A stretch of 64,000 bases of DNA from Candidatus Levyibacteriota bacterium (GCA_016432345.1 CP066685.1:368236-432235); one strand, 5' to 3'; positions 2,408-44,250 are shown, numbered from the stretch's first letter. Translations and numbers: made by a program. The notes: generated by a model not told the origin, from the letters alone.

Positions 2408-3458
2408 TCCATATTTAGATACATTGGGCGGCGGAGAAAAGTATATGCTTGTTCTTGCGCAAGTATTATCGGAAAAACACGATGTGTGTATTTTTTGGGA
2501 TAAAAAAAAAGAAGACGAAATAAAAGCCGGAGCAATGCAGCGCTTTGGATTAAATCTAAATACAATTAATTTCCTAGATAATATTTTTTCAATTAAAACC
2601 CCGTTTCTTAAAAGGCTTTGGGAATTACAAAAATATGACGTTATTGTGTATCTAAGTGATGGAAGTATTCCATTCTCACTTAAAAAAAATTTAATTATCC
2701 ATTTTCAGTTTCCTGTTGAGCGGGTAAAGCCATCTTTGTTAGGTAGAGTAAAATTTTTAAGTGTAAAGCAAGTTATTTGTAATTCTAAATTTACAAAGTC
2801 ATATATTGATAAAAAATTTTATATAGATAGTAAGATTTTATATCCTCCGGTCGATATTATGAAAAATACCACATACAAAAAAGAAAATATTATTCTGCAT
2901 GTTGGGAGGTTTAGTTTAGATACTAAAGGCAACAACTTTAAAAAACAGGATTTTATGATTGATGTGTTTAAGAAAATTGCAACAAAAATAACAGATTGGC
3001 GATTTATTCTTATTATTAGCGTTAAGAAGGAAGACAAAGAAAAAATAAAAAGTTTAAGAGAGCGGGCAAAGGGTTTTCCGATCGAAATTATCGAGAATCC
3101 ATCAAACGAAAAACTTTGGCAGATGTATCAAAAAGCAAAAATTTATTGGCATGCTTCTGGTTTTGGAGAAAACTTAGAAAAAAATCCAGAGAAAGCAGAA
3201 CATTTTGGCATAGCAACTGCCGAGGCAATGGGCGCTGGCGCGGTGCCGGTTGTTATAAATGCCGGAGGCCAGCCAGAAATAGTAATGAATGGGAAGAATG
3301 GATTTCTCTGGGATACAGAAGAAGAATTTATTACCAGAACAAAACAGATTATTTCAAATAATACCCTTTGGCAAGAATTTTCTAAAGAGGGACAACAGGC
3401 GGTTATAAAATTTAATAAAGAACGGTTTTGTGAAGAAATAAAAGGAATTGTCGAATAA
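2388..3458 (+). CDS. Glycosyltransferase family 4 (GT-B fold)
   Basis: 356 aa. The N-terminus is MKIGIFDPYLDTLGGGEKY and the C-terminal signature is EHFGIATAEAMGAGAVPVV (E-x7-E). It overlaps the upstream gene end by 20 nt. Confidence 0.85.
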   Translation: MKIGIFDPYLDTLGGGEKYMLVLAQVLSEKHDVCIFWDKKKEDEIKAGAMQRFGLNLNTINFLDNIFSIKTPFLKRLWELQKYDVIVYLSDGSIPFSLKKNLIIHFQFPVERVKPSLLGRVKFLSVKQVICNSKFTKSYIDKKFYIDSKILYPPVDIMKNTTYKKENIILHVGRFSLDTKGNNFKKQDFMIDVFKKIATKITDWRFILIISVKKEDKEKIKSLRERAKGFPIEIIENPSNEKLWQMYQKAKIYWHASGFGENLEKNPEKAEHFGIATAEAMGAGAVPVVINAGGQPEIVMNGKNGFLWDTEEEFITRTKQIISNNTLWQEFSKEGQQAVIKFNKERFCEEIKGIVE

Positions 3459-10036: not shown

Positions 10037-11650
10037 ATGAGGAATTTTATACTTATTCTTATATTTATTCATGCTTTGTTTTTGTTTCCTTTTTTAAAAC
10101 CTGGTATTCCTCTTTCCCATGACGGTGCTGGTCACGTCGCAAGAATGGGGGCCTATTATAAAGCCCTCAAAGATGGTCAAGTTCCTCCGCGTTGGGCAGG
10201 AGATCTAAACTTTAGATACGGAACGCCGGTTTTTATTTTCAATTATAATTTGCCGTATTTTGCCGGGACGTTATTTTATATGCTTGGATTGAATTTAGAG
10301 GATTCATTCAAACTTATGCTTGGTATGGCATTTATTCTTTCTGGGGTAGGATTTTTTCTTTGGGCTTTACAAATAGTTAACAGAAATGCAGCTTTTATAG
10401 GAGCGCTGCTTTTTGGATTGTCGCCATACCATTTTCTCAATGTTTTTGTTCGAGGCGCATTGGGAGAGATAATTGGACTTGCCATAGTCCCTTTTATTTT
10501 TTGGCAAATTGAAAGGATGATAAAAGAAAATAAGTTATCAAATATCTTCTTGGCAGGAATTCTCTATGGATTTTTAATTTTGTCGCATAATGGAAGTGCC
10601 GTCATATTTTCGCCAGTTTTTCTCCTTTATTTTATCTTTAGAACGAAAAGAAAATTCCAGCTCGTGTCTCTTTTTACTTTTTTTACAATCGGGTTTCTTA
10701 TCTCTGCGTATTTTTGGCTGCCAGCTATTTTGGAATCCAAGTATGTACAGGGGGTTTCAGCCATAGGTGAGATGTATAAGCAACATTTTCCACCTTTTTC
10801 CTATCTTCTGTACAGCAATTGGGATTTTGGTCCAGATGTAAATGCTACAAACGGCCTATCGCCACAGGTAGGGATCATTTTATTTGTTTTTGTTTTTGTC
10901 GCAACATTAAAGTTTTTTAAGCATAGAGATAATACATTAGGCTTTTGGCTAGTTATATTTGCCGTTTCAATTTTTTTAACCACCTCTTTATCTAATGTTA
11001 TATGGAGTAATATCATATTCTTGAAGATACTTGAGTTTCCTTGGCGATTTACAGCTTTATCCAGTTTAACAGCAGCGATAATTGCCAGTTTAATAATAAA
11101 TTCGATGAAAAACCAAAAAATAGTTTATTTGGTAATTATTACGTTGTTATTAACTAGCTTTTTGTTCACAAAGACAAATGTACAAAATAAAAAAGATGAC
11201 GCTTATTATTATTCGTACACTGGATCCACTGTGTATCGTGGGGCAACAAGCACGATATGGTCGGGAGTCCCTTTTGAGATACCTGGAAACAGAGTAGAAA
11301 TAATATCAGGGAATGGACAAATAAGTAATCTTTTTATTAAATCTAATCTTCATTCGTTTAGAGTTACCGCAGATTCCGATGTAAGAATTCTTGATAATAC
11401 TTTTTACTTTCGGGGGTGGAGGGTAAAAATTGATGGTCAAAAAGCGCCAATAGAATTTCAAGATATTAATCATAGAGGTCTTATTACATTTTACGTTCCG
11501 CAGGGAGAGCATAGAGTTGAGGTTATTTTTGAAGAATCTCCTATTCGGTTTGTATCAAATGTTATTTCATTAATTGCCATTGTTGGCATCCTGCTTCTGT
11601 TTGTATGCTTTTATTACTTCTGTAATGTAATAGATTTTTTCTTCCGATAA
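10037..11650 (+). CDS. Polytopic membrane protein of the HDGxxH..PRW type (COG5617 / 'PTPS-related' membrane family), paralog D1
   Basis: 537 aa. N-terminal motif [49 protein letters not shown], then EFPWRF, then the C-terminal [15 protein letters not shown]...[16 protein letters not shown]. Paralogs at 32037 and 40410. Confidence 0.55.
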
Positions 11651-22331: not shown

Positions 22332-24263
22332 TCCGGTTTTGATTCTGATGGAGGTGAGTATTTGATCCACTGCCTTTTCTATTTCTTTTGCGCGGTCATT
22401 TTTTATTTGTGACGGGCTGTTTGGTAAAAGTATAGCATGGAAAATATAAGATGCGGCTAGAAATGATTCGTAAGATGTCCCGCACCAATATTTTTCTTTG
22501 GTAACGCACCTTTTTTTTTGATAATTTTTTCCCAAAGTATTCATTTTAGAAACAATAGCGTTTGTAGAGAGCGAATTATTTTGAGCGGTGTTTGTGATAT
22601 TTAAAAGAGACAATGTTACTTCATCAGAGTACACAGATATTTTTTTGGGATATTCTTCTTTTACTTGCCAATACGACGGATACTCAAAGGCAATTGGAAA
22701 CCCGCTTTTTATAAAAGCTCTTTTTAACATCTCGTCAAGATATAAGTTGTACATTTGTTGATAAATTGATCTAAAACCCGGGATATCATTTGCTTTTTGT
22801 CTAAGCAAAATCATTGTTGGCAAATTTATTTTTTGTCTAAAATAAGCTGTTAATTCAATTTGCGTTAATATATCATCAGGAGTATCTTTTAATTTTGCTT
22901 CCAGCAAAGTTAGTTTTTTTTCAGTTTCTTGTGTTGGGTATAGCATTTTGGCAAGAGATGGATTTTGTGTCATTGCCGAAGGCGGCACGAAATATGTAAT
23001 TATGATCTCTGGATAATTCTTTGAGCTTATAAAACCGGCAAGGGCTTTTTTACTATTTTTCTGGTTTTGGGAAAAAATGCCGCCATAATCACCCCTTGTT
23101 CCATTGTGAATTTTAAGAAATGAAATAAAGGCTAAATTAAAAATGCCGTAGGCGATAATAAGAGAAATAAAAAGTATGGAAAATAAAATTTTTGACAATT
23201 TAATTTTTTTTAGAAAATAAACGAATGTATAGGATAAGAAAAGGAAAAGAAGAGGAAGCGCTGTAATATAGTAGTGCATAAGCGGTTCAACCCTGAAAAA
23301 GTAATACATAATAGATACCGCAATGGTTGTATAAATAAGAAAACGAGATTTCTTGTTTTGTTTATAGAAAAGGCACATGCCAATCGGTAAAAGTAAATAT
23401 GTAAGATAAAAAAGATATCGTATGATGTAGGTAAAAGGAAATGATTGTTTAAACACTAAAAAATCTTCTGTGCCAAATACAAAATTAAAATAGCCTGTTC
23501 CTAAAATTTGCAAGTTTCGCATAAAAACTGTTGCAGATGAAACAGCGGCAACTTTTTTTGCGGCAGCAGCAATTGCAAAACAATCAGGACAGCCGTTGTG
23601 TATTTCGTAATACAAAAAAGGAAGAAGCGGCAATAACCCAAGTAAGAATCCTAAAAAAGCATATTGAAGGGAAAATGACGATCGTTTTTCCACTAACAAA
23701 AAAATAGTAAGTGGCGCAATAAAAAATAAAGTGGATTGGTGAAGCTGTATTAGCAAAAGCGATAAGAATATGTATAGCGCCCAATACTTTTTTTTATTAT
23801 CAAAAACAATTACGTGGCTGCTCCATAAAAGACCAATTAGAAATGGCATAATTAGATCAGGCGCCCAAATTTTTCGAGAAAAAAGAATAGCCCAAGGCGA
23901 GACTGCCAAAAAGACTGCCGTAATAAAACCAGTAAGCGTTCCGTAGTAGCGTTTTATAAAAAGAAAAATTAAACCGATTGTTAAAGTGTTAACAAATCCA
24001 ATAAAAAAAGTTATGCCGATTGGATTAGTCGTAAAAAAAACAATAGGGAAGAGTAAATAATTAAAAAGCGGCGGATTTGGAATGCCCACGCTTGATACGG
24101 TTCCTAAAGCCGCAAAAGGATGTCCAAATAGCGGACGGGCTGCTAAGAATACATTAAGAGCTTCGTCTACTTTAAATTCAATCAGATCAAGGTTGCTAAG
24201 GCGAAAATATCCAGCCAGGCTAACAATAGCAATAAAGATAAAAATTGTATTTCTTTTCGACAT
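22323..24263 (-). CDS. ArnT/GT39-like GT-C membrane protein with a large C-terminal soluble domain (divergent paralog)
   Basis: 646 aa on the minus strand. Motifs YFRLSNLDLIEFKVDEALNVFLAARPLFGHPF and VSPWAILFSRKIW, then about 250 polar C-terminal residues. It overlaps the 3' end of 20613..22331 by 9 nt (convergent). Confidence 0.6.
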   Translation of the reverse strand: MSKRNTIFIFIAIVSLAGYFRLSNLDLIEFKVDEALNVFLAARPLFGHPFAALGTVSSVGIPNPPLFNYLLFPIVFFTTNPIGITFFIGFVNTLTIGLIFLFIKRYYGTLTGFITAVFLAVSPWAILFSRKIWAPDLIMPFLIGLLWSSHVIVFDNKKKYWALYIFLSLLLIQLHQSTLFFIAPLTIFLLVEKRSSFSLQYAFLGFLLGLLPLLPFLYYEIHNGCPDCFAIAAAAKKVAAVSSATVFMRNLQILGTGYFNFVFGTEDFLVFKQSFPFTYIIRYLFYLTYLLLPIGMCLFYKQNKKSRFLIYTTIAVSIMYYFFRVEPLMHYYITALPLLFLFLSYTFVYFLKKIKLSKILFSILFISLIIAYGIFNLAFISFLKIHNGTRGDYGGIFSQNQKNSKKALAGFISSKNYPEIIITYFVPPSAMTQNPSLAKMLYPTQETEKKLTLLEAKLKDTPDDILTQIELTAYFRQKINLPTMILLRQKANDIPGFRSIYQQMYNLYLDEMLKRAFIKSGFPIAFEYPSYWQVKEEYPKKISVYSDEVTLSLLNITNTAQNNSLSTNAIVSKMNTLGKNYQKKRCVTKEKYWCGTSYESFLAASYIFHAILLPNSPSQIKNDRAKEIEKAVDQILTSIRIKTGSF

Positions 24264-24306
24264 ACTCTGTTTATATTATACGCTGTTTTTTTTGTATAAT
24301 AGAGGA
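24264..24306. promoter_or_regulatory. 43-bp divergent intergenic region with back-to-back -10 elements
   Basis: On the + strand, an extended -10 TGTATAAT at 24293-24300 lies exactly 6 nt before the GTG at 24307. On the - strand, TATAAT (+ coordinates 24275-24280) lies 11 nt before the ATG at 24263. A T8 tract (24286-24293) lies between them. The call is based on sequence pattern only. Confidence 0.3.
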
Positions 24307-25959
24307 GTGAGGTATTTTCTATTAGTTTGCATAATCATTTTAGCCATATTTCTTCGTTTTTTTCAGCTTGGACAAAATCCGTCATCACTCACCTGGGACG
24401 AAGTTGCATGGGGTTATAATGCCTATACTCTTGGTATAGACGGAAGAGACGAGTTTGGCCGTTTTTTACCGCTTGATTACCTTGAATCTTTTGGTGATTT
24501 TAAGCCGCCTCTTTATGCTTACCTTGTGATAATTCCTGTCAAAATATTCGGTCTTAATGAGTTTGCAGTACGTTTTCCATCTGCGTTTTTTGGCGTTTTA
24601 ACTGTATTTGCAACATATTTTTTAACTAAAGAGTTATTTAATAAATCACCTTATTCATTAAAAATTAGAAATTTGAAATTAGAAATTTCAGAAGTAGCAG
24701 CGCTGCTTTTGGCGGTTTCGCCCTGGCATGTCAATCTTTCTCGGGCGGCTTTTGAGGCAAATATTTCCACATTTTTTATTGTAGTTGGGGTTTTATTTTT
24801 CCTTTTATGGAGAAACAAAAATTATGGTTATGCATTGCCAACTTCGATAGTTTCATTTGTCCTTTCTCTTTATGTGTTTAATACTGCGCGTGTAGTTTCA
24901 CCATTGTTATTTCTTGTTTTGGCCATTGTATCATTGAAACAGTTTTGGAATCGCAAAATACAGGTAGCTATTGCAGTTATTGTTGGGGGTATAATTCTTT
25001 TTCCTCTTTTAAAATTTCTTTTTACACCTCAAGCAAGCCTTCGTTTTCAAGAAGTAAACATTTTTTCCGATATTGGGATAGTTCAGAGAGCAAATACCTA
25101 TATAGAAAATGATGGCAATACCACAATTTCAAAAATTATTCATAATCGCCGATGGGGTTATACAATTGAATTTTTACGTCATTATTTTGATCATTTTTCC
25201 GCTCGTTTCCTTTTTCTTCGAGGAGATGGAAATCCAAAATTTTCCACCCAAGATGTTGGAAGTATGTATTTATGGGACCTACCATTTTTTATTATTGGAG
25301 TACTTTTCCTTTTTCGCTATCGCCCTGGGCATTGGTGGTTAGTGCCGGTGTGGTTGCTGATAGGCATTGTTCCTGCGGCAACAGCAAGAGAAACACCACA
25401 TGCATTACGTATAGAAACGACTCTGCCAACATTTCAGATATTTGTTGCTTTTGGCATTGTTATTTTTTATCAGTGGATTTTTTCGATTAAAAATAGATTA
25501 AAAAGGAGAACAGTGATCAATGTCAGTATAGCGCTTCTCTTTTTACAAATTTTATACTATCTTCATGGATATTACATACATTATCCAAGAGAATATTCAG
25601 GCCAGTGGCAATATGGTTACAAAGAGGCAATAGCATACATACAAAATGTTGAAAAAAACTATGATGCGATTTATTTCACCGATAGTCTTGGAAGACCGCA
25701 TATATACTATGCATTTTATGCAAAAATTTATCCATCATTGTATAGAAAAGATGCAGTAGTTTGGAGAGAAATGCCTTATGGTTTTGTGCATGTAGATAAA
25801 ATAGGAAAAGTATATTTTATGAGAGATTTAATTCCAAAAGATACAAAAAAGAGAAATCTCTATATTGATGATCCAAGAAATGTTCCGTCAGACGCAAAAA
25901 TACTAAAAAATTTTAAGCTGCTTAACGGCGAAGACAGTTTAATTGCTTATACTAAATAG
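24307..25959 (+). CDS. PMT_2/GT39-type GT-C glycosyltransferase, paralog B3
   Basis: The track ORF (24082) extends 225 nt antisense into the neighbouring gene. The only plausible in-frame start after that gene is GTG 24307 (VRYFLLVCIIILAIFLRFFQLG), which gives an N-terminus the same length as the paralogs. Motifs TWDEVAWGYNAYTLGIDGRDEFGRFLPLDYLESFGDFKPPLY, VRFPSAFFGVLTV, VSPWHVNLSR and ETPHALR. Confidence 0.7.
   Translation: MRYFLLVCIIILAIFLRFFQLGQNPSSLTWDEVAWGYNAYTLGIDGRDEFGRFLPLDYLESFGDFKPPLYAYLVIIPVKIFGLNEFAVRFPSAFFGVLTVFATYFLTKELFNKSPYSLKIRNLKLEISEVAALLLAVSPWHVNLSRAAFEANISTFFIVVGVLFFLLWRNKNYGYALPTSIVSFVLSLYVFNTARVVSPLLFLVLAIVSLKQFWNRKIQVAIAVIVGGIILFPLLKFLFTPQASLRFQEVNIFSDIGIVQRANTYIENDGNTTISKIIHNRRWGYTIEFLRHYFDHFSARFLFLRGDGNPKFSTQDVGSMYLWDLPFFIIGVLFLFRYRPGHWWLVPVWLLIGIVPAATARETPHALRIETTLPTFQIFVAFGIVIFYQWIFSIKNRLKRRTVINVSIALLFLQILYYLHGYYIHYPREYSGQWQYGYKEAIAYIQNVEKNYDAIYFTDSLGRPHIYYAFYAKIYPSLYRKDAVVWREMPYGFVHVDKIGKVYFMRDLIPKDTKKRNLYIDDPRNVPSDAKILKNFKLLNGEDSLIAYTK
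24662..24689 (+). repeat. Imperfect heptamer array (AAATTAG AAATTTG AAATTAG AAATTTC), equivalent to a 14-mer x2, in GT39 paralog B3
   Basis: Read directly. It encodes KIRNLKLEI. It lies at the same loop as the perfect AAATTGG array of paralog B4. Confidence 0.85.
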
Positions 25960-25962
25960 CTC

Positions 25963-27648
25963 ATGTTTAAAAAAATTATTATATTTATTTTTATTGTTTT
26001 TATCGCAAGTGTTTTGCGTTTGTGGCAATTAGGAAATATTCCTCCCTCTCCAGATTGGGATGAAGCAGCGCTTGCTTATAGTGCGTATTCGATTATGCAG
26101 ACTGGAAAGGACGAGTATGGTATTTCTTTTCCTATTATTCTTCGATCGTTTGATGATTACAAACCGGCACTTTACTCATATATAGCAATTCCCTTTATTA
26201 AGATTTTTGGTTTGAATGTTATTGCAATTCGTCTTCCATCTGCTGTTTTTGGCATTACAACTATTATCGCAGTATATTTTTTAATGAAAGAATTGTTTAA
26301 GAATACCACCTTAAAATTGGAAATTGGAAATTGGAAATTGGAAATTCCAGAAGTAGCTATGCTGCTTCTGGCTATTTCCCCATGGCATTTGCAATTTTCC
26401 CGTATCGCTTTTGAATCAAATCTTGGCTTGTCTCTTAATATTTTTGCCATATTTTTATTTGTTAAAGGATTAAAAAAACCAATGCTGCTGCCATTTTCAG
26501 CTTTTTTTCTAGGATTAAGTCTTTATGCTTATCAGAGTGAAAAAGTATTTGTTCCGCTGCTTTGTCTAATTCTTGTTTTGGTGTATAGAAAAACATTTTT
26601 CAGATTGCCCAAAAAATACATAATATTTGCATTTTTTATTGGTATAGCGCTTACAGTTCCTATTGCTTATTACACTTTTACTCAAAAAGCGGCATTAGCC
26701 AGAGCGCAGGGGGTGAGTATTTTTACAGAAAGTACGCCGTTTGTCAAACAATATACAAAAAGAATTGTTATAGACAAAAAAAATCATGACATTTTTGGTT
26801 TTTTTGTTGATAACAGAAGAATAGCTTATGTAAAGGCTGTAATTGACGGATATTTGTCTCATTATAATTTATATTGGCTATTTCTTTCCGGGGATATTTC
26901 CCGTCATCATGCGCCAGAAATGGGTCTTTTGTATCTTTGGGAACTGCCGTTTTTGTTTATAGGAATTTATCAAATGGTATTTGGTTTTTTTCCAAAAAAC
27001 ACTAAATATTTAATTTTTTTGTGGTTTTTTGCCGCTCCAATTCCTGCCTCTGTAACAACTGGCGTGCCGCACGCTGTAAGAACACTCAATTTTTTGCCTA
27101 CTTTTCAGATTTTTATTGCGATAGGACTTATTGCCGCTTTTGCAAAAATATCAAGTATTAAATATCAAGTATTAAATATAATAGGTTTGCGATATACACT
27201 TATTTCCTGTTTTTTGTTAATGTTCACTTTTAATTTTTTGTATTATTTAAATCAATATTTTGTGCAGCAAAACAATTTTTATTCCGAAAGTTGGCAATAT
27301 GGTTATAAAGAAGCAATAGACGATGTAAAAAAGATAGAAAATAGATATCAAAAAGTTATTGTTTCAAATCAGCCTCATTTAGACCAGTCATATATGTTTT
27401 TTCTTTTTTATCTTCAGTATCCACCAAATCTTTACCAGGAGGAAGCAAAGAAAAATAATTCTGGTGGTTTTGCCGAAACGCACCAGTTTGGCAAGTATAT
27501 TTTCCGTCCGATTGTTTGGGAAAACGAAAAAAAAGACGGTAAAACTCTATATGTTGGAAGGCAGGAAGACTTTCACGATTCAGCACATGTTATAAAAAAA
27601 ATTTTCTTTCTTAATGGAAAGGCGGCAATTTCTATAGTTGATGGATAA
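25963..27648 (+). CDS. PMT_2/GT39-type GT-C glycosyltransferase, paralog B4
   Basis: 561 aa. Motifs LWQLGNIPPSPDWDEAALAYSAYSIMQTGKDEYGISFPIILRSFDDYKPALY, IRLPSAVFGITT, ISPWHLQFSR, GVPHAVRT and WQYGYKEAI. Confidence 0.75.
   Translation: MFKKIIIFIFIVFIASVLRLWQLGNIPPSPDWDEAALAYSAYSIMQTGKDEYGISFPIILRSFDDYKPALYSYIAIPFIKIFGLNVIAIRLPSAVFGITTIIAVYFLMKELFKNTTLKLEIGNWKLEIPEVAMLLLAISPWHLQFSRIAFESNLGLSLNIFAIFLFVKGLKKPMLLPFSAFFLGLSLYAYQSEKVFVPLLCLILVLVYRKTFFRLPKKYIIFAFFIGIALTVPIAYYTFTQKAALARAQGVSIFTESTPFVKQYTKRIVIDKKNHDIFGFFVDNRRIAYVKAVIDGYLSHYNLYWLFLSGDISRHHAPEMGLLYLWELPFLFIGIYQMVFGFFPKNTKYLIFLWFFAAPIPASVTTGVPHAVRTLNFLPTFQIFIAIGLIAAFAKISSIKYQVLNIIGLRYTLISCFLLMFTFNFLYYLNQYFVQQNNFYSESWQYGYKEAIDDVKKIENRYQKVIVSNQPHLDQSYMFFLFYLQYPPNLYQEEAKKNNSGGFAETHQFGKYIFRPIVWENEKKDGKTLYVGRQEDFHDSAHVIKKIFFLNGKAAISIVDG
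26314..26346 (+). repeat. Perfect heptanucleotide tandem repeat (AAATTGG)x4 + AAATT inside GT39 paralog B4
   Basis: Read directly: aaattgg aaattgg aaattgg aaattgg aaatt. It encodes KLEIGNWKLEI. The unit is not divisible by 3. Confidence 0.95.
27146..27179 (+). repeat. 14-nt tandem repeat (AAATATCAAGTATT) x2.4 inside GT39 paralog B4
   Basis: Read directly: aaatatcaagtatt aaatatcaagtatt aaatat. It encodes KISSIKYQVLNI. The unit is not divisible by 3. Confidence 0.9.
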
Positions 27649-27656
27649 CCTAAAAA

Positions 27657-28889
27657 ATGAAATTTATTATACTTTTTTTTATTTTTTTATGTTTTATTTT
27701 TTTCCGTTTTTATGATATCGGGCGCATAAATCAATTTGGTTGGGATCAGGTTGACAACGCCTGGGCGGCAAAAAATATTATAATTGACCATAAATTGCCG
27801 CTTGTGGGTATGCCTGTCAAAGGGAGTAGCGGATTTTATATTGGTCCGGCATATTATTATCTTATTTCGGTTTTTTATTTCTTTACCATGCTTGATCCGA
27901 TTGCTTCAGGACTTTTTGTCGGTTTCACTAGCATTTTTACTTTTTGGATTTTTTATTTTGTTACAAAAAAAATTTTTTCTACTGTTGTTGCGTTTTTGGC
28001 TGTTTTTATTTATACATTTTCATGGCCACTTATACAAGCAGATAGAATTCAATGGCCGGTTAACTTTATTGCCCCCATTTCTTTTATTGTTTTTTTTGCT
28101 TTGTATAAGATTATTACAGGAAAAGAAAAATACTTGTTGCTATTGGCAACAGCGTTTGGTTTTTCCTTACATATCCATTTCACTTCGATTTTTTACTTTA
28201 TTATTGTACTTTTAGCTTTGCCATTTTTTCCATGGAAGAAAACAATCTGGAAATATGCGCTTATTGCAATTCCTCTTTTTTTGATTTGGTTAATCCCAAA
28301 TGCAATCTTCGAATTTAATACAAAAGCAGCATCAGGGAAAAGTTTAACAACTTATATTTCCACTTATTATCATGGGTTTCATGCAAGAAGGTTTTTACAA
28401 CTCCTACCAGACGCATTTATAAAGTTTGAATCTGTCTTAACATTTAGGATGATAAAACCATTGTCTTATATCTTGCTGCCAATTTTTTATTTTTTATATT
28501 ACTCCGAAGTTAGATCAAATCAGCGATTAAAACTTTGTTATTTAATACTACTTTGGTTTCTGGTTCCATGGGTGATTTTTTCAACATATAGCGGCGAAAT
28601 AAGTGATTATTATTTTTTTCTAACCATGCCTATAGTTATTATAGTTTTGTCTTATATTACAAGCAGAGTTTTTCAAATTAATAATATGTTGCCTAAAATT
28701 GCTATAGTTATTTTTTGGTCGTATTATGCCTTGTTTTCAGCGCAAAATTTTGCACAATATCCATCTGCTGGTTTGGCTAAAAGCAGAGTTAATGTGACAG
28801 AAGCAATTAAACAGGGCAGGGTAATAGAATTTGTTCATGGAAGCGCAGACTCATATTTATACTATATTTATACAAGAAATAAAAAATGA
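27657..28889 (+). CDS. ArnT/PMT-like GT-C membrane protein, family C paralog C2
   Basis: 410 aa and polytopic. First loop INQFGWDQVDNAWAAKNIIIDHKLPLVGMPVKGSSGFYIGPAYYY, matching the family C pattern. Confidence 0.5.
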   Translation: MKFIILFFIFLCFIFFRFYDIGRINQFGWDQVDNAWAAKNIIIDHKLPLVGMPVKGSSGFYIGPAYYYLISVFYFFTMLDPIASGLFVGFTSIFTFWIFYFVTKKIFSTVVAFLAVFIYTFSWPLIQADRIQWPVNFIAPISFIVFFALYKIITGKEKYLLLLATAFGFSLHIHFTSIFYFIIVLLALPFFPWKKTIWKYALIAIPLFLIWLIPNAIFEFNTKAASGKSLTTYISTYYHGFHARRFLQLLPDAFIKFESVLTFRMIKPLSYILLPIFYFLYYSEVRSNQRLKLCYLILLWFLVPWVIFSTYSGEISDYYFFLTMPIVIIVLSYITSRVFQINNMLPKIAIVIFWSYYALFSAQNFAQYPSAGLAKSRVNVTEAIKQGRVIEFVHGSADSYLYYIYTRNKK

Positions 28890-30529
28890 AGAAAATTAAA
28901 AAATTCAATCTATTTTTCTTTGTTATTATAATTGCTATTTTTTTTCGTTTTTATCATCTTTCTTTTGCGCCTCCGAGTGTTTCTTTAGACGAAGCATCCA
29001 TTGGCTACAATGCTTATTCAATTCTCAAAACAGGAGCGGACGAATACGGAAATAAATTTCCTATTTTACTTCGCGCTTATGATGATTGGAGACCTGCCTT
29101 ATATGTTTATTTAGTTATGCCATTTGTTCAGTTATTTGACCTTACGGCATTTGCTGTTCGTTTACCTTCAGTAATTTTGTCGGTAATAACTGTTATAGCA
29201 GTCTATTTTTTAACTAAAGAGCTTTTTAAAAATTCATTGAAAATTTCAGAAGTAGCTATGCTGCTTCTGGCAATATCGCCCTGGCATATATACATTTCCC
29301 GGCTTGGCCATGAGGTAAATCTTTCTCTTTCATTTTGGATTTTTGGGCTATTATTTTTTTTCAAGGGTATTAATAAAAATACCGAAAAGTTTAACTGGAA
29401 AAAGGTTTGCTACTATTCAATTAGCGCTCTATTTTTTGCTATTTCTTTTGGAAGTTACCAAAGCGCAAAACTTTTTATTCCCATAATGGTTCTAATTTTA
29501 ATAGTGCTTTACCACAAAGAATTATTTGCGAGAAAGAAAGAAATCATCTTGCCTTTTGTGATTGGCGTCGTATTTTTACTACCAACTGTTTTATCCTCAT
29601 TTGAGCCAAATGCACTTATTCGTTTACAGGGCACAAATATATTTGCCGTAGAAAAAAACCGTTACTATCAGGAATCATTATTACTAAAAAAAGCAAAAGA
29701 AGATGGTGATATTATTGGCGAGATTGTTCACAATAGACGAATATTAACAACAAGAATCTTTTTCGAACAATACATAAGTCATTTTAATTACAAATGGCTT
29801 TTTGCGAATAGTGGAAAAGAAAATCATAAAACTTCTGGAGTGGGGCTATTTTATTCCTGGGAAGCAGTTTTTATACTTTTAGGTTTTTTAGTCTTTTTCA
29901 AAGAAAAAATTCCTTTAAAAATAAAACTATTTCTTATATTTTGGATTGCTGTAGCGCCGTTATCTTCAGCCATAACCACAGATGCTCCGCATGCAATGCG
30001 TACATATTCTGTTTTGCCTGCCCCTCAAATTATTGAAGCATATGGTATTTATTATATTTTTTCTTTGTTTAAGAAATATTCTAAACTAATTTATACCTTA
30101 TTTTATTTAATAATGATAGGAACAATTTTTTATTTTGCAAGACACTATTTTTTTATTTTTCCAAAAAAAGAATCTTCTTCATTTCAATATGCGCTTTATC
30201 AGGCAGTACCTTTTGTTTTATCTTGCGAGAATAGATATAATAGAATTGTTTTTTCAAATAAAGATAATTTGTATCAATCCTATATGTTTTTCTTGTTCTA
30301 TAGCCGATATGATCCAAAAAAATATCAAATGCAAGACGGGACAATTTCGGGGGGATTTGCAAAAACGCATGCCTTTGATAAATATGAGTTCCGATCAATA
30401 GCGTATGACATTGAGAAAGAAAAATCATTACTTATTGGTAATAAATCAGATTTTCCAAAAGATAAAAAGCCTCTTGCGGTATTTAAAGATCTTGATGGAA
30501 AGGAAGCTATTGCAGCAGTAGAAAGATGA
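28886..30529 (+). CDS. PMT_2/GT39-type GT-C glycosyltransferase, paralog B5
   Basis: 547 aa. Motifs FYHLSFAPPSVSLDEASIGYNAYSILKTGADEYGNKFPILLRAYDDWRPALY, VRLPSVILSVITV, ISPWHIYISR and DAPHAMRT. ATGA overlap with the upstream gene. Confidence 0.75.
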   Translation: MKKIKKFNLFFFVIIIAIFFRFYHLSFAPPSVSLDEASIGYNAYSILKTGADEYGNKFPILLRAYDDWRPALYVYLVMPFVQLFDLTAFAVRLPSVILSVITVIAVYFLTKELFKNSLKISEVAMLLLAISPWHIYISRLGHEVNLSLSFWIFGLLFFFKGINKNTEKFNWKKVCYYSISALFFAISFGSYQSAKLFIPIMVLILIVLYHKELFARKKEIILPFVIGVVFLLPTVLSSFEPNALIRLQGTNIFAVEKNRYYQESLLLKKAKEDGDIIGEIVHNRRILTTRIFFEQYISHFNYKWLFANSGKENHKTSGVGLFYSWEAVFILLGFLVFFKEKIPLKIKLFLIFWIAVAPLSSAITTDAPHAMRTYSVLPAPQIIEAYGIYYIFSLFKKYSKLIYTLFYLIMIGTIFYFARHYFFIFPKKESSSFQYALYQAVPFVLSCENRYNRIVFSNKDNLYQSYMFFLFYSRYDPKKYQMQDGTISGGFAKTHAFDKYEFRSIAYDIEKEKSLLIGNKSDFPKDKKPLAVFKDLDGKEAIAAVER

Positions 30530-32034
30530 AGAAATTATACATTTTTTTACTTACCTTGTTGGTAATATTTTTAAGTCTAGTTCCTCGAGTTACGGATTTG
30601 CTAAGTGGAAATTACCTTTTTTCATATGATCAAGGAAGAGATTATTTAGCTGTAAAAAGTATTGTTGTTGATAAAAAACTAACTCTTATTGGTTCAGAAA
30701 TTGGCGCTGGAATGGCCTACTTTAGAGGAATTTTCCATGGCCCTTTCCATTACTATTTTCTGGCTGTTCCTTTTATACTTTTAAATGGCGATCCGTATGG
30801 AGGTATTGTTTTAACTTTTTTATATGGCATGCTTGCAGTAATATTTAGTTTTTATTTAGGAAAAAAACTGTTTGGTTTATATGGAGGATTAATGGTTGCG
30901 CTTCTTGTTGCAATATCTCCTCCTCTTATTTCTTCTTCCAGATTTGTATGGAACTCGCATGGGGCTGTTGTATTTATTTTGCTTGCTTTTATATGTGTAT
31001 ATAAAATTTCTTTTAATAAAAAATATATGGGCAGATACATTTTTTTAGCCGCGTTTTTTTCTGGTTTTGTTTACAATTTTCAACTAGCTATTGCAATTCC
31101 AATGTGTTTGGCGCTGTTTATTTACAGCGCTTTAATTTTAAAAATAAAAGATTATAAACTATATCTCTTATTGTTTATCGGCTTTTTTTTAGCTTTTTCC
31201 CCTTTTTTTCTATTTGAAATTAAACATGATTTTGGAGCATTGAGAGGTATTACTGAATACTCATTTGAGAATAAAATTCCCCTTACGTCAAAGCTTATTG
31301 AGCGTATCACAAAAGAACGAATTGGACTTTTCCAATATAATTTTTTAGATACTTTTCCGCGTGTTTCCTATATTAATACAGATGTTTCGTTGGTAGTTTT
31401 TATTGGTATATATTTATATTTATTTTTTTTGGAGAGAGATATCAAGATAAAAAGATATTTGTCGTATTTAGGGATTTTACCTTTATCGCATTTTTTTATA
31501 CTATATATTTTAAGAACCACGGCGTATGTTTATTTTCTTATAGATCTTAATTTTGTATATATCTTCTTATTTGCTTATGTTATAGTTTCTGCTTATAGAA
31601 ACAAGAATAATTTTTTATATTTTGTACTTATTGTGGTTTTTTCGGCCTTAGTTGCTCAAGGGATAAAAAGCGCGATTAAGACATTTCAGTATGATTACCA
31701 AGACTATGGCGGAATTGCAAAAATTATTGGCAAAAAAGATTTAATTGATTTTATCTATAAAAATGCAAAAGGTGAAAAGTTTGGAGTGCTTTTTTTTAGT
31801 CCGCCTATCTATACATATCCTTATAATTATATAGTGTGGTGGTACGGATCTAGAAAATATCATTATGTGCCGCATCAAGAAAAAAAGGGATTATTTTATT
31901 TGGCCATAGAGCCAGATGGGTCAAAACTCTGGAGCTATAATGGTTGGTTAGAGACAGTAATAAAAACAGGAAAGATTATAGAAACAAAAACATTGCCAAG
32001 TGGGTTTATTGTTCAAAAAAGAATTGGAGAATAA
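30526..32034 (+). CDS. ArnT/PMT-like GT-C membrane protein, family C paralog C3
   Basis: 502 aa and polytopic. First loop YLFSYDQGRDYLAVKSIVVDKKLTLIGSEIGAGMAYFRGIFHGPFHYY. ATGA overlap with the upstream gene. Confidence 0.5.
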   Translation: MKKLYIFLLTLLVIFLSLVPRVTDLLSGNYLFSYDQGRDYLAVKSIVVDKKLTLIGSEIGAGMAYFRGIFHGPFHYYFLAVPFILLNGDPYGGIVLTFLYGMLAVIFSFYLGKKLFGLYGGLMVALLVAISPPLISSSRFVWNSHGAVVFILLAFICVYKISFNKKYMGRYIFLAAFFSGFVYNFQLAIAIPMCLALFIYSALILKIKDYKLYLLLFIGFFLAFSPFFLFEIKHDFGALRGITEYSFENKIPLTSKLIERITKERIGLFQYNFLDTFPRVSYINTDVSLVVFIGIYLYLFFLERDIKIKRYLSYLGILPLSHFFILYILRTTAYVYFLIDLNFVYIFLFAYVIVSAYRNKNNFLYFVLIVVFSALVAQGIKSAIKTFQYDYQDYGGIAKIIGKKDLIDFIYKNAKGEKFGVLFFSPPIYTYPYNYIVWWYGSRKYHYVPHQEKKGLFYLAIEPDGSKLWSYNGWLETVIKTGKIIETKTLPSGFIVQKRIGE

Positions 32035-32036
32035 TA

Positions 32037-33686
32037 GTGCAAACAAAGAAAAATTTTCTTTATATTTCTTTTATTATTTTTTTTGGCGTCGTAGCGATTT
32101 TGGATTTTTTTCATCCTGGTTTGCCAATAACCCATGATGGGCAGGATCACGTTGCTCGAATTGCAAATTTTTATCAAAATTTGACTGAGGGAAGTATTAT
32201 TCCAAGATGGGCCGCAAATCTTAATTGGGGATATGGGCACCCAATTTTGATGTTTTTGTATCCGTTACCCTCCTATATTGCATCGCTTTTTCATTTTTTG
32301 GGATTTTCATTGATTGATAGTTTAAAGATTGTTTTTGGCATGTCGTTTATTGCAAGCGGTTTTGCTATGTATTTGTGGATAAAAGAATTATTGGGAGAGG
32401 AGCCAGGACTAGTAGCTGGAATTTTATATATGTTTGCACCTTATCGTTTTGTAGATTTATATGTGCGCGGAGCAATAGGCGAACATGTTGCTTTTGTTTT
32501 TCCGCCGCTTATTTGCTACTTTCTTTTAAAAATGTCAAAGAAATATTCATATTGGTATGTAGTTGGTGGAGCAGTATCGCTTGCCAGTCTTGTTCTTTCG
32601 CATAACGCGATAACAATTATGTTTGTGCCAGTAATAATACTTTATGCCGTTTATTTAATTTATCAAAACGATGATAAAAAACTAATCGCTATACGCTATA
32701 TGCTTATTGCTATCTTTGGTTTTGGCCTTTCTGCTTTTTTTGGGTTTCCTGCTTTCTTTGAGGGAAAGTATACATTACGGGATATTGTTACAAAAAATGA
32801 ATATGCAAAAAGCTTTGTTAATTGGAAAGATTTTCTTTATGGTTTATGGAGTTATGGCGGTACGGGATTATTTACCGTACAGATCGGTATTGTTCAGTGG
32901 TTTGTAGTCATTTGCATGACTCCACTTGTTATATTTTATAGGCAGAAGAGAAATATACAATTGCTTATTGTAAGTACTTTTATTCTTTTCTTTTCGACAC
33001 TTTTTCTCATGATCTCGCAATCAAAAGTAGTATGGGAAACATTAACGATATTGCAAAAATTTCAGTTTCCTTGGAGATTTCTTTCAATCATAGTGTTTCT
33101 AGCCGCGGTCAGCGGAGGTTTTTTTATTTTTTGTTTGCCTAAAAAATTTAAATCTGGAGCAATAGTTCTTATTATTTGCTTTTCTCTTTTCTTCAATAAA
33201 GACTATTGGCATGCAAAAGGATTTCTGCAAAAAGATCAAGCGTTTTTTAAGAGTATTTATAATGGTACAACAGACACGGGCGAAAGCGCTCCAGTTTGGT
33301 CGGTTCGTTTTATGGAAAAAATGCCAAAAGCGCATAGCGAAGTGATAAGCGGAAAAGCGACCATAAAAGAAGTAGAGCGTACTTCGATAAAACATGTATA
33401 TGAAATAGAGGTTAATAGCGATTCTGCGCGAATAAGAGAGAATACTCTATATTTTCCTGGCTGGAAAATTATTAATAACAAAAAAAATATAACTCCTGAA
33501 TTTCAGGACCCTGCGAATAGAGGTCTTATGACATATTTTCTTGGAAAAGGGAAATACACTGTTTTTATAATGTTTGAAGAAACAAAGCTGCGTTTTGCGG
33601 CAGACATAATAAGCGTTTTTAGTTTGGTATCTATAATTATTTTAGGTATACTTAAAAAGAGGATACTATGCCTTCGCTTTCGGTAG
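32037..33686 (+). CDS. HDGxxH..PRW-type (COG5617/'PTPS-related') polytopic membrane protein, paralog D2
   Basis: The track ORF (31944) overlaps the upstream gene by 91 nt. GTG at 32037 is preceded by GGAGA (32026-32030). Motifs THDGQDHVARIANFYQNLTEGSIIPRWAANLNWGYGHPILMFLYPLPSY, QFPWRF and the C-terminal NTLYFPGWKIINNKK. Confidence 0.55.
   Translation: MQTKKNFLYISFIIFFGVVAILDFFHPGLPITHDGQDHVARIANFYQNLTEGSIIPRWAANLNWGYGHPILMFLYPLPSYIASLFHFLGFSLIDSLKIVFGMSFIASGFAMYLWIKELLGEEPGLVAGILYMFAPYRFVDLYVRGAIGEHVAFVFPPLICYFLLKMSKKYSYWYVVGGAVSLASLVLSHNAITIMFVPVIILYAVYLIYQNDDKKLIAIRYMLIAIFGFGLSAFFGFPAFFEGKYTLRDIVTKNEYAKSFVNWKDFLYGLWSYGGTGLFTVQIGIVQWFVVICMTPLVIFYRQKRNIQLLIVSTFILFFSTLFLMISQSKVVWETLTILQKFQFPWRFLSIIVFLAAVSGGFFIFCLPKKFKSGAIVLIICFSLFFNKDYWHAKGFLQKDQAFFKSIYNGTTDTGESAPVWSVRFMEKMPKAHSEVISGKATIKEVERTSIKHVYEIEVNSDSARIRENTLYFPGWKIINNKKNITPEFQDPANRGLMTYFLGKGKYTVFIMFEETKLRFAADIISVFSLVSIIILGILKKRILCLRFR
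32682..32716 (+). repeat. Decayed CTATACG-type heptamer array in paralog D2
   Basis: Read directly: ctaatcg ctatacg ctatatg cttattg ctatctt. It encodes LIAIRYMLIAIF. It lies at the position homologous to the perfect arrays at 878 and 41043. Confidence 0.7.
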
Positions 33687-40409: not shown

Positions 40410-42038
40410 ATGAAAGGATTTCTTTCTATTTTTTTAGTTTTGTTTTTTTCTTTTGTTGCTGCAAGATCTTTACTAGCTCCAGGATTGCCGCCAACACATG
40501 ATGGAGAATATCATATTATTAGATTTTACGAATTTGACAAGACTTTAAGAGCAGGAGATTTATACCCCCGCTGGGCGCAGGATTTAAATAATGGATATGG
40601 CGTTCCATTATTTAACTATGTCTACCCGTTACCAAATTATATTGCCTCTTTTTTTCATCTATTCGGAGTAAGTTTTATTGATGCATTTAAATTAAGCATG
40701 TTTTTTGCCGCAATAGTAGGTTCAATAGCAATGTATTTATGGGCAAAGATTTTTTGGGGAGAAGTGGGTGGTGTTGTCTCATCTGTTTTTTATACTTTTG
40801 CCCCATATCACTTTGTTGATATATATGTCAGGGGTTCTGTTGGTGAAGTATGGGCATTAGCGTTTTTCCCTGCATTTCTTTGGTCAGCAACAGTATTTAT
40901 AAAAGAAAGAAGACCAAGATTTGTCGTTTTGTCCGGGATTTTTCTCTCTCTAATTATATTTTCTCATAATATTTTAGCATTAATGTTTTTTCCCTTCGCT
41001 CTTTTTTATGTTCTCTTTTTAATTTTTTTTAGCAAAGAAAAACTATACGCTATACGCTATACGCTATACGCTATTTTTTTGGGTCTAGGTTTGTCTGCAA
41101 TTTTTTGGTTGCCCGCCATTTTTGAAGCAAATTATGTTAAAGGGTTACAAATATATGATATTGAAAATAATTTTCCAGAATTGTATCAACTATTTATTCC
41201 ATCGTGGGGGTCTGGTTTTTCAAATGATGATTTACCGAATCAAATGTCTCCTCAAATAGGAATTGCAAACATATTTTCTTTATTAGGGACAGTTATCGTA
41301 TTGATTATTCTTTTGAGGAGAAAACAAAAAAGTGTTTCATTACTAATTTTGTTTTTTCTTTTATGGTTTACTGTCGTATTTTTTTTACTGCTTCCTGCAT
41401 CTTTGCCAATTTGGTTGCATGTACCTTTGATGAATTATTTTCAATTTCCGTGGCGTCTGTTGAGTCTTGAGATTTTATTTTTGGCATTTCTAGCCGGGAG
41501 TATGATAATGATTTGGAAGAATAAGATCTTTCTGGCGCTGATGGTTATTTTTCCAATAGTGTTAGGTGTTGGCTATGCAAAGCCGCCATTCTATTTTAAT
41601 AGAGATGATATATATTATATTTCCAGATCAAATTTTATTGATGGAACAAACAGTCCAGGAGATTTATTTAATACGGTATGGTTTAATAAGGGTTTAAAAA
41701 AACAAAAAGAAAAAATTTTAGTAGGGCATGGTATGTTGACAGATGTCCAAATAAATCCTACAAAATATTTATTACGTGTTGAAGTAAATTCAGATTCTCA
41801 GGTAACAGTGAATACAGTATATTTTCCTGGATGGACGGCAATGATTAATAAAAAAGAAATAGATACAAAACCTGATAATAATGGTTTAATTACTTTTTTT
41901 GTCCCTGAAAGTACGAATTATATTGTGCTTTTTTTTAAAAATACTTTTGTTAGAATGATTGCAACAAGTATTTCTTTGGTATCTTTTTTTTCGATAATAC
42001 TGTATTTAGTATTATATTTTCGTTATGAAAAAAAATAA
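40410..42038 (+). CDS. HDGxxH..PRW-type (COG5617/'PTPS-related') polytopic membrane protein, paralog D3
   Basis: 542 aa. Motifs THDGEYHIIRFYEFDKTLRAGDLYPRWAQDLNNGYGVPLFNYVYPLPNY, QFPWRL and the C-terminal NTVYFPGWTAMINKKE...GLITFFVPE. Confidence 0.55.
   Translation: MKGFLSIFLVLFFSFVAARSLLAPGLPPTHDGEYHIIRFYEFDKTLRAGDLYPRWAQDLNNGYGVPLFNYVYPLPNYIASFFHLFGVSFIDAFKLSMFFAAIVGSIAMYLWAKIFWGEVGGVVSSVFYTFAPYHFVDIYVRGSVGEVWALAFFPAFLWSATVFIKERRPRFVVLSGIFLSLIIFSHNILALMFFPFALFYVLFLIFFSKEKLYAIRYTLYAIFLGLGLSAIFWLPAIFEANYVKGLQIYDIENNFPELYQLFIPSWGSGFSNDDLPNQMSPQIGIANIFSLLGTVIVLIILLRRKQKSVSLLILFFLLWFTVVFFLLLPASLPIWLHVPLMNYFQFPWRLLSLEILFLAFLAGSMIMIWKNKIFLALMVIFPIVLGVGYAKPPFYFNRDDIYYISRSNFIDGTNSPGDLFNTVWFNKGLKKQKEKILVGHGMLTDVQINPTKYLLRVEVNSDSQVTVNTVYFPGWTAMINKKEIDTKPDNNGLITFFVPESTNYIVLFFKNTFVRMIATSISLVSFFSIILYLVLYFRYEKK
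41043..41074 (+). repeat. Perfect heptanucleotide tandem repeat (CTATACG)x4 + CTAT inside paralog D3
   Basis: Read directly: ctatacg ctatacg ctatacg ctatacg ctat. It encodes LYAIRYTLYAI. The unit and copy number are identical to 878..907 in a different gene family. Confidence 0.95.
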
Positions 42039-43179: not shown

Positions 43180-44250
43180 ATGAATATTGTTCTTGATATA
43201 TCTCCGCTGACTGACGACTCAAAAATTTCACACAGAGTAAGAGGAACGGGGTTTTATATTAAAAACTTAAAAAGATCTTTATTGGAATTCTTTCCAAATA
43301 ATAGATACACTTTTTTTAGCAGGGGGCAATCAATACCTCATGATATAGATATAGTTCATTATCCTTATTTTGAACCATTTTTTTTAACGTTACCATTCAG
43401 AAAAAAATATAAGACTGTCGTCACTGTTCACGATTTAACACCTTTTGTTTTTTCTGATAAATTTCCAATAGGAATAAGAGGGCGCATTAAATGGCTTCTG
43501 CACAGAAGAAATCTTAGAAATGTGGATGCAATTATAGCTGATTCGCAAGTCTCAAAAAAAGATATTATAAAATATGCAGGAATACCAGAGTCAAAGATTA
43601 CCGTTGTTTATTTAGCGGCAGGAGAAGAATTCAAAAGAATCAGAAATGAAGAATTAGGAATAAATAGTCTCCGTAATAAATATAACCTGCCGGAGAAATT
43701 TGCATTGTATGTGGGAGATGTAACATGGAATAAGAATTTGCCAAGACTAATTAGAGCAGTTAAAAAAACAAATATACCATTAGTAATGGTAGGAAAAGCT
43801 CTTCTTCAAAAAGAATTTGATAAAGAAAATGCATGGAATCAAGATTTAATTATAATACAAAATCTTATAAAAAATGATAAGCAAATTACCTCTATCGGTT
43901 TTGTTCCCACGGAGGAATTAGTTCTACTTTATAATATTGCAACTGTTTTTGTAATGCCTTCTTTGTATGAAGGTTTTGGCTTACCGATTTTAGAAGCTAT
44001 GCAATGTGGTTGTCCTGTTATTACAACGAAAGAAGGATCGCTTAAAGAAATTACTGGAGATGCGGTTTTTTTTGTTGATGCGTATGATATCGAAAGCATA
44101 GCTTCGGGAATTGAACGAGTAATAAAGAATAAAAGACTGCAAAGAGAACTTTCTGAAAAAGGTTTAATACAGGCAAAAAAATTCTCTTGGAAAGAAACTG
44201 CTAGAAAAACGATGCAGGTATACAAAAAAATTTATGAGAAAACTCATTAA
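43180..44250 (+). CDS. Glycosyltransferase family 4 (GT-B fold)
   Basis: 356 aa. Motifs VHDLTPF and the C-terminal MPSLYEGFGLPILEAMQCGCPVITT (E-x7-E). Confidence 0.85.
   Translation: MNIVLDISPLTDDSKISHRVRGTGFYIKNLKRSLLEFFPNNRYTFFSRGQSIPHDIDIVHYPYFEPFFLTLPFRKKYKTVVTVHDLTPFVFSDKFPIGIRGRIKWLLHRRNLRNVDAIIADSQVSKKDIIKYAGIPESKITVVYLAAGEEFKRIRNEELGINSLRNKYNLPEKFALYVGDVTWNKNLPRLIRAVKKTNIPLVMVGKALLQKEFDKENAWNQDLIIIQNLIKNDKQITSIGFVPTEELVLLYNIATVFVMPSLYEGFGLPILEAMQCGCPVITTKEGSLKEITGDAVFFVDAYDIESIASGIERVIKNKRLQRELSEKGLIQAKKFSWKETARKTMQVYKKIYEKTH

Follow-up and report, generated by a model that had tools for sequence, protein, structure and literature searches.

The described systems closest to the locus reported here are the simple sequence repeat (SSR) contingency genes of bacteria, the intergenic heptamer families of the TAACTGA/STRR type and tandem repeats that undergo concerted evolution. 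Heptanucleotide tracts of 8-38 units have been proposed as phase-variable in Haemophilus influenzae (PMC2651432), and bacteria are on record as having an excess of heptamer SSRs (PMC4679880), a point also made in a passage of PMC4692102 that cites Mrazek 2007. The heptamer excess, the phase variation of glycosyltransferases through SSRs and the concerted evolution of repeats are already known. In the open-access literature no report was found of coding heptamer arrays that are conserved in position and constant in length while their unit turns over, nor of CTATACG repeats, nor of SSRs or phase variation in bacteria of the Candidate Phyla Radiation (CPR). The subject here is a perfect array of the heptamer CTATACG at positions 41043-41074 of a 64,000-nucleotide (nt) stretch of DNA from Candidatus Levyibacteriota bacterium (GCA_016432345.1, CP066685.1:368236-432235), referred to throughout as the window, where the array lies inside a gene for a predicted membrane glycosyltransferase.

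Comparison of orthologous genes indicates that the repeat DNA persists at this site while the encoded peptide changes with the unit. The tract is best explained, with a probability of roughly 0.7, as a long-lived coding heptanucleotide microsatellite whose units are kept alike and in which selection maintains the reading frame and the length of the helix. It resembles the H. influenzae SSR genes (PMC2651432) in being a perfect repeat, with a unit length that is not a multiple of three, in the open reading frame (ORF) of a surface-glycan enzyme, where a change of one unit truncates the product. Unlike those genes, it has only about 4.5 units, occurs in an uncultured CPR host, has no OFF alleles among those seen, and is conserved in position and length across orthologs that are 55-70% identical while the unit turns over. 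With the TAACTGA/STRR-type families it shares a strong and exclusive 7-nt period and insertions or deletions between relatives in 7-nt steps, and the CTATACG loci found across phyla add arrays of related units and inverted arrangements to the likeness. Those families lie largely between genes, in many cases just ahead of a start codon, and one unit dominates each genome, whereas the arrays described here are coding, occupy fixed positions in proteins and are built from many units. As in the concerted evolution of tandem repeats, units are more alike within an array than between lineages and a variant spreads to all of them (CTATACG versus CTCTACG); unlike the usual case, the array is 30 nt long and strictly constrained in frame and total length, so that concerted turnover would rewrite an enzyme helix.

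The window has 33% G+C and comes from a contig of 762 kb. Most of it is taken up by a glycosylation cluster, in which a dozen or more membrane glycosyltransferases of the GT-C type (YfhO, PF10131 'PTPS_related' and PMT_2) occur alongside other glycosyltransferases. For three window proteins NCBI lists a 100% identical entry from the Candidatus Levyibacteriota (CPR/Patescibacteria) metagenome-assembled genome (MAG). The features on which the comparison turns are as follows.

41043..41074, plus strand: perfect coding array (CTATACG)x4.6, 32 nt, encoding LYAIRYTLYAI, residues 212-222 of helix 211-228.
40410..42038, plus strand: PF10131 (PTPS_related) GT-C gene, 542 residues, 100% identical to an NCBI protein of the Candidatus Levyibacteriota MAG.
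878..907, plus strand: perfect array (CTATACG)x4.3, 30 nt, starting at codon 238 of a YfhO-family gene.
167..2407, plus strand: PF09586 (YfhO-family) GT-C gene, 746 residues, QQG41086.1, carrying the second perfect array.
32682..32716, plus strand: decayed CTATACG array (CTAATCG CTATACG CTATATG CTTATTG CTATC) encoding LIAIRYMLIAI, at the same site of the PF10131 paralog 31944..33686.

Both perfect tracts are simple sequence repeats, consisting of head-to-tail perfect 7-nt copies (4.6 and 4.3 units). The initial annotation had reported perfect CTATACG tracts in two different GT-C families, and both are present, at 41043-41074 and 878-907, in the same frame (LYAIRYTLYA); the former begins at codon 212 of ORF 40410..42038, as had been estimated. 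The decayed series that it described at 32682..32716 was likewise found, in ORF 31944..33686, with 17 of 26 period-7 matches, and the paralog at 10037..11650, from which it had reported an array to be absent, is T-rich at the site with 13 of 26 matches and no clear array. With up to two mismatches allowed, the window contains eight occurrences of the 14-mer, where shuffles predict 0.12. A scan for arrays returned six of period 7, compared with 0.00 in 100 triplet shuffles, and none of period 5, 6 or 8-11. The forward strand of CTATACG is open in all three frames, which always encode the same cyclic heptapeptide; the reverse strand of the unit contains TAG.

The AlphaFold model of the 542-residue protein has a predicted local distance difference test score (pLDDT) of 87 and a predicted template modelling score (pTM) of 0.89. 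In this model the array at 41043-41074 encodes the first 11 residues of transmembrane helix 211-228 (local pLDDT about 97), directly after a four-residue loop, SKEK. The array thereby opens a helix and does not lie in the loop to which it had originally been assigned. Nor does it stand immediately before LPAIFE, as was also proposed, since 12 residues (FLGLGLSAIFW..) intervene; the conserved motif, WLPAxxE, is 12 residues downstream of the array-encoded stretch. In the YfhO gene the array is located at the equivalent helix, ahead of an LLPALE motif. The host genes are predicted to encode glycosyltransferases of the GT-C fold, an assignment based on Pfam families PF10131 and PF09586, on the model and its structural matches, and on a conserved acidic motif in the first external loop. 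The solved structures closest to the 542-residue model are the GT-C enzymes AftD, PglB, AftA, STT3 and ArnT, and residues D31, G32 and H35 are invariant. A promoter, a terminator or an RNA structure at the tract was ruled out by a site scan, which revealed no promoter-like or terminator-like sites at the array, and by RNA folding, which was no better at the array than in shuffles (z = +0.88).

Orthologs of the PF10131 gene were retrieved by protein identity (syntenic loci) and by a metagenome scan, from which the best 80 of 163 loci were used. The length of the helix site is constant across all 76 distinct orthologous sequences. At least 16 of 26 period-7 matches were found in 29 of these 76 sites (38%), compared with a mean of 7.5 matches in control windows of the same genes (n = 38,389), 0.31% of which reach 16. 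The register is also constant between lineages, the unit starting directly after a Lys codon, and the unit itself differs. CTATACG is perfect in the window and partly decayed in three orthologs (L119, L120 and L123), while L125 carries a perfect (CTCTACG)x4, in which the identical A-to-C change relative to the window occupies the same position in all four units. Under independent substitutions the chance of this fourfold change is estimated at about 2e-5. In L127 two CTTTACG units are followed by two ATTTACG units, L158 has CTAGTTG/CTATTTG units, and a PF10131 paralog in L209 has four CTCTCAG units in the same register. About 20 loci share the series AAATACT TAATACT TAATACT TTATACA TAATACT, and the sole constant departures of this TAATACT class from a perfect array are at the two places where TAA would be in frame. 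The encoded peptides vary accordingly between orthologs (LYAIRYT, LYALRST, LYALRFT, KYLILNT and others). Two further peptides, QYTIHYTLYTI in P0024 and LFTIYYLLFTI in P0025, would fit perfect CTATACA and CTATTTA arrays, the units here being read from the peptides only. The CTCTACG array, the CTTTACG/ATTTACG series and the TAATACT class, all in one register, argue together with the codon evidence given below that the units within arrays evolve in concert. The array of L185 (GTATTGC, 2116-2149) belongs to a clade whose other members lack periodicity, which suggests that an array can arise at the helix site without a change in length.

Codon usage was evaluated in 19 loci selected by peptide alone (KYLILNT-like), comparing codons at the site with those of the remainder of the same genes. 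Tyr is encoded by TAC in 26 of 31 cases at the site as opposed to 25% elsewhere (p = 6e-11), Ile by ATA in 45 of 49 as opposed to 35% (p = 7e-16), and Thr by ACT in all 16 as opposed to 27% (p = 2e-9). When the window is compared with L119, L120 and L123, 8-9 of the 9-10 site codons that specify an identical residue also agree in their third base; over the whole genes this share is 51-58%, and synonymous sites elsewhere in these genes are near saturation. Since each position of the unit is read in turn as codon position 1, 2 and 3, no position should be silent across the whole array. These results bear on the proposal that LYAIRYTLYAI is a motif conserved for its structure or function, with the periodicity of the DNA as a side effect. 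The site is a well-ordered helix in the model and the version KKYLILNTLYIIL is common among homologs, as such a motif would have it; yet the peptide differs strongly between close orthologs, the synonymous codons are fixed in the heptamer register, and a helical periodicity of seven residues would yield a DNA period of 21 nt and not 7. A peptide kept with varied codons, which the initial annotation had named as the finding that would speak against its view, was not encountered among the orthologs, and a conserved-peptide motif, already contradicted by these data, is scarcely credible. The view itself, that the tract is a dynamic DNA element and not a conserved structural peptide, is borne out in that peptides differ, the heptamer array persists and synonymous codons follow its register.

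Within arrays the units are homogeneous, between lineages they differ, length and frame are constant, and at another site described below the copy number has changed by three units. The most probable explanation is that an array has long been held at one fixed spot, the first 10-11 helix codons just after the Lys codon, in YfhO-type and PF10131-type GT-C genes of Levyibacteria and related Microgenomates. Transient slipped misalignment or conversion within the array would keep the units alike, with or without intermediates that are one unit longer or shorter, and selection would purge alleles that are out of frame or of the wrong length. Homogenisation together with selection on a hydrophobic helix would freeze synonymous sites as well. 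The two identical CTATACG arrays of the window would then be members of one old array family, both at present fully homogenised to CTATACG.

Several points weigh against this explanation. The homogenising process itself is one that we infer: a difference in copy number at the PF10131 helix site was not seen in any ortholog (76 sequences), and since length does not differ there, slippage at this site is deduced from the homogeneity of the units and not observed. The isolated array of L185 in an otherwise array-free clade is not explained by simple slippage, and neither is the fact that arrays at three unrelated sites all have about 4.5 units. The loci used for the codon tests are related by descent, which makes the tests not fully independent, and the units assigned to P0024 and P0025 come from peptides and not from DNA. 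Selection on a function of the array at the level of DNA or RNA could conceivably contribute.

The two perfect arrays of the window are part of an exact identity of 34 nt (874-907 and 41039-41072), comprising AAAA and the array. A recent ectopic gene conversion or short-patch recombination that copied the array between the YfhO-type and PF10131-type genes of this genome is a tentative explanation, to which we assign somewhat less than even odds. The identical fragment is far longer than the divergence of the genes predicts, which is a mark of gene conversion, for identity in the aligned flanks falls to 53% across 30 nt and to 39-44% across 150 nt. The nearest PF10131 ortholog, L128, is of the TAATACT type at the site, with a nucleotide identity of 73% overall and 55% at the site, and the nearest orthologs of the YfhO gene, P0121 and P0122, have unrelated peptides there. 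That the nearest ortholog of each gene differs at the site leaves an exchange inside this genome plausible. Each family includes members of the CTATACG and of the TAATACT class, and the former class is rare in each (about 13/120 and about 5/120 homologs), the homologs of the two genes numbering roughly 1,900 and 1,700 in all. Against an exchange, the identity stops at the array edges, that is at the array plus 4 nt, so that no conversion tract reaches unique sequence. Arrays of the CTATACG type are found in orthologs of both genes elsewhere (L119, L120 and L123; L209, P0125, P0163 and P0172); no recent exchange in this genome need therefore be invoked, and the shared unit may go far back in each lineage. 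In two further genomes, each recognised by proteins on contigs of equal length (P0083/P0139 and P0051/P0221), the units at the site do not match between the two genes, indicating that coupling within a genome is not general, and the co-occurrence of CTATACG in both genes was the very reason for which the finding was picked. When the tract was compared with the gene phylogeny, the nearest orthologs were seen to carry other classes in a neighbor-joining tree that is weakly resolved. Either of the original alternatives, gene conversion or repeated expansion at a homologous loop, may apply: the 34-nt identity between genes with diverged flanks (39-53% identical) was recovered, and neither a conversion tract in the flanks nor an expansion at the site, where orthologs are equal in length, was seen. 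Ectopic conversion is compatible with a long-lived homogenised array, to which it would be an added step.

Two side observations concern matches between paralogs and the retrieval of homologs. Exact matches of 23 nt (1037-1059 and 19137-19159, between the otherwise diverged genes YfhO1 and YfhO3) and of 25 nt (26348-26372 and 29247-29271, between the PMT_2 genes at 25963 and 28886, directly 3' of an AAATTGG array) may be either short tracts of conversion or motifs under strong conservation. The 90% cluster of the YfhO protein (P0361, P0362) is represented by a 36-residue Logan fragment, P0362, that was found in no frame of the window, which is why this protein, although present in the collection, is missing from the homolog list.

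The period of seven also raises the possibility that the tracts are contingency switches, in which slippage by one unit turns surface glycosyltransferases off or on in a population. The unit is not a multiple of three, the repeat lies inside the ORF, and simulated changes of one or two units in either direction truncate both proteins soon after the tract, to 223-240 residues (542 in full) and 258-290 residues (746 in full), while changes of three units keep the frame. The truncation makes a switch that operates at a low rate possible. The hosts are membrane glycosyltransferases in a cluster of many paralogs, several genes of the cluster bear such arrays, the arrays are kept perfect, and only in-frame length variants are fixed between orthologs, all of which would suit phase variation. 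A Logan contig from the same strain, L227, ends inside two arrays. The tracts have only 4.3-4.7 units, too few for slippage at high frequency, compared with the 8-38 of the H. influenzae tracts proposed as phase-variable (PMC2651432). The 479 kb covered contain 44 distinct arrays, about 20 of them in neighbouring genes sampled regardless of whether the gene was intact; not one disrupts its ORF, and ON and OFF length alleles were not seen among them. Nor was an OFF allele found among the Levyibacteria-type loci retrieved, which included the best 80 of 163 metagenome loci, weakly scoring split genes lying outside these. Phase variation is on balance unlikely. Runs SRR12113422, SRR12113425 and SRR12113431 all contain this strain at 100% identity. 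Contig L227, from an independent Logan assembly of the first of these, is 100% identical to window positions 882..4224, starting in the CTATACG array and ending in the array of the YfhO paralog 3458..5683. Its break at 882 is already accounted for by the 34-nt duplicate (k = 31); the second break, at 4224, is unlike the first not explained by that duplicate and might reflect length heterogeneity.

A further alternative is that both genes received an insertion of CTATACG as a special spreading element, comparable to TAACTGA repeats or in-frame palindromic elements. Genomes of many phyla contain tracts of (CTATACG)x3 to x10.9, at 118 or more loci. Many of these tracts end just ahead of a start codon (..CGCTAaaaATG) or adjoin inverted heptamer arrays, and some are translated in frame within genes for DapF, IspG and O-antigen ligase. 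Control heptamers argue otherwise: in viral contigs CTATACG was found at 5 loci and three composition-matched controls at 2, 5 and 2, and the 830 kb around the hits contain 38 other heptamer arrays of many units as opposed to 0-8 for other periods. The control heptamers and the many other units indicate that the cross-phylum result reflects the known general heptamer excess in bacteria, and they rule out CTATACG as an element enriched for this specific unit. Moreover, array-bearing and array-free orthologs do not differ in length at the site, and blastx revealed no homology between the 118 loci and the genes of the window. An intergenic family that faces start codons and has one dominant unit, as in the TAACTGA/STRR type, is not what the window displays, its tracts being intragenic. 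Insertion of a spreading element is accordingly very improbable.

The cross-phylum loci (L001-L118) are drawn from Planctomycetota, Omnitrophota, CPR, Bacteroidota, Proteobacteria and Clostridia, including isolates such as Croceitalea dokdonensis. They are mostly intergenic and flanked by degenerate CGCTNNN units, and in many cases an inverted heptamer array with an A-rich loop precedes them. The in-frame cases are L070 and L096 (DapF), L089 (IspG), L087 (YjeF C-terminal domain), L073 and L076 (O-antigen ligase) and L043 (a multi-pass membrane protein), names that were read from translations and not from a family search. Two Omnitrophota DapF orthologs carry a CTATACG array at the same position.

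Arrays of period 7 were also found at other sites, three of them in the window beyond those reported initially: one at the same helix site of a YfhO paralog, and two at a second homologous site, a loop in two adjacent PMT_2 genes.

4192..4230, plus strand: period 7/14 array (TTCTTTA TTCATTA, x5.3 and x2.6), at the homologous helix, codon 245, of the YfhO paralog 3458..5683.
26314..26346, plus strand: perfect array (AAATTGG)x4.7, encoding KLEIGNWKLEI, in a loop of the PMT_2 GT-C gene 25963..27648.
24657..24687, plus strand: imperfect array ATTAAAA ATTAGAA ATTTGAA ATTAGAA, in the homologous loop of the adjacent PMT_2 paralog 24082..25959.

At the YfhO helix, L209 has the series CTATCCG CTATACG CTATACT TTATACG, L210 has a TAATAC-type array, and the CTATACG-type arrays of P0125, P0163 and P0172 were read from peptides. 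At the second hot spot (24657-24687 and 26314-26346) a third PMT_2 paralog, 28886..30529, lacks the insert and is 10 residues shorter. Orthologs of this site differ in whole units, L226 and the window having 4.7 and L225 having 1.7, a difference of exactly three units, in frame and between conserved flanks; a copy-number difference of this kind, by which SSRs are recognised, was seen here and not among the 76 helix-site sequences. A third hot spot is located at about codon 150 (about 450 nt into the gene) of a GT4 gene downstream of the PF10131 ortholog, in about 11 orthologs (L145, L148, L149, L153, L154, L158, L166, L185, L186, L190 and L193) that have arrays of about four copies of many units, among them GAATTCA, TCAAGAA, TTCAAAG, AATGGAA, ATATCAA, ATTGGAA and AATGGCA. 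The GT4 copy of the window (43180..44250) has no array. The GT4 array of L166 encodes LEIGNWKLEI, the peptide of the PMT_2 array of the window. In the 22-kb locus L209, from another Levyibacteria genome, arrays are likewise of period 7 only; three GT2-family genes contain them (6545-6577, 15771-15808 and 16697-16740), including a perfect (AAATTCA)x4, and arrays are therefore not confined to the transmembrane helices of GT-C proteins.

Arrays of fixed position and length in CPR glycosylation genes may also be maintained devices and not tolerated by-products, either switches or tuning knobs that rewrite or silence glycosyltransferases, or in-frame joints for exchange between GT-C families; we consider this improbable. 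The joint version has its basis in the 34-nt identity, the common frame and the homologous helix of the two families. If true, either version would imply a heptamer-specific homogenising process that operates without net change in length.

For the long-lived, homogenised array the consequences are several. Annotators are warned that short-read assemblies break where paralogs share a short identical tract, as in L227, which ends in two arrays. Coding cases conserved in position are added to the bacterial heptamer excess, which has long been noted and is unexplained. The locus would offer a natural example of concerted evolution inside an ORF, in which a microsatellite rewrites an enzyme helix while length and frame stay constant. 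CPR bacteria are uncultured and host-attached, and possess extensive sets of membrane glycosyltransferases whose specificities are unknown. In several of the corresponding genes, conserved positions are occupied by hypermutable 7-nt arrays, which provides a testable handle on surface variation in CPR bacteria in the form of read-level length variation at known coordinates.

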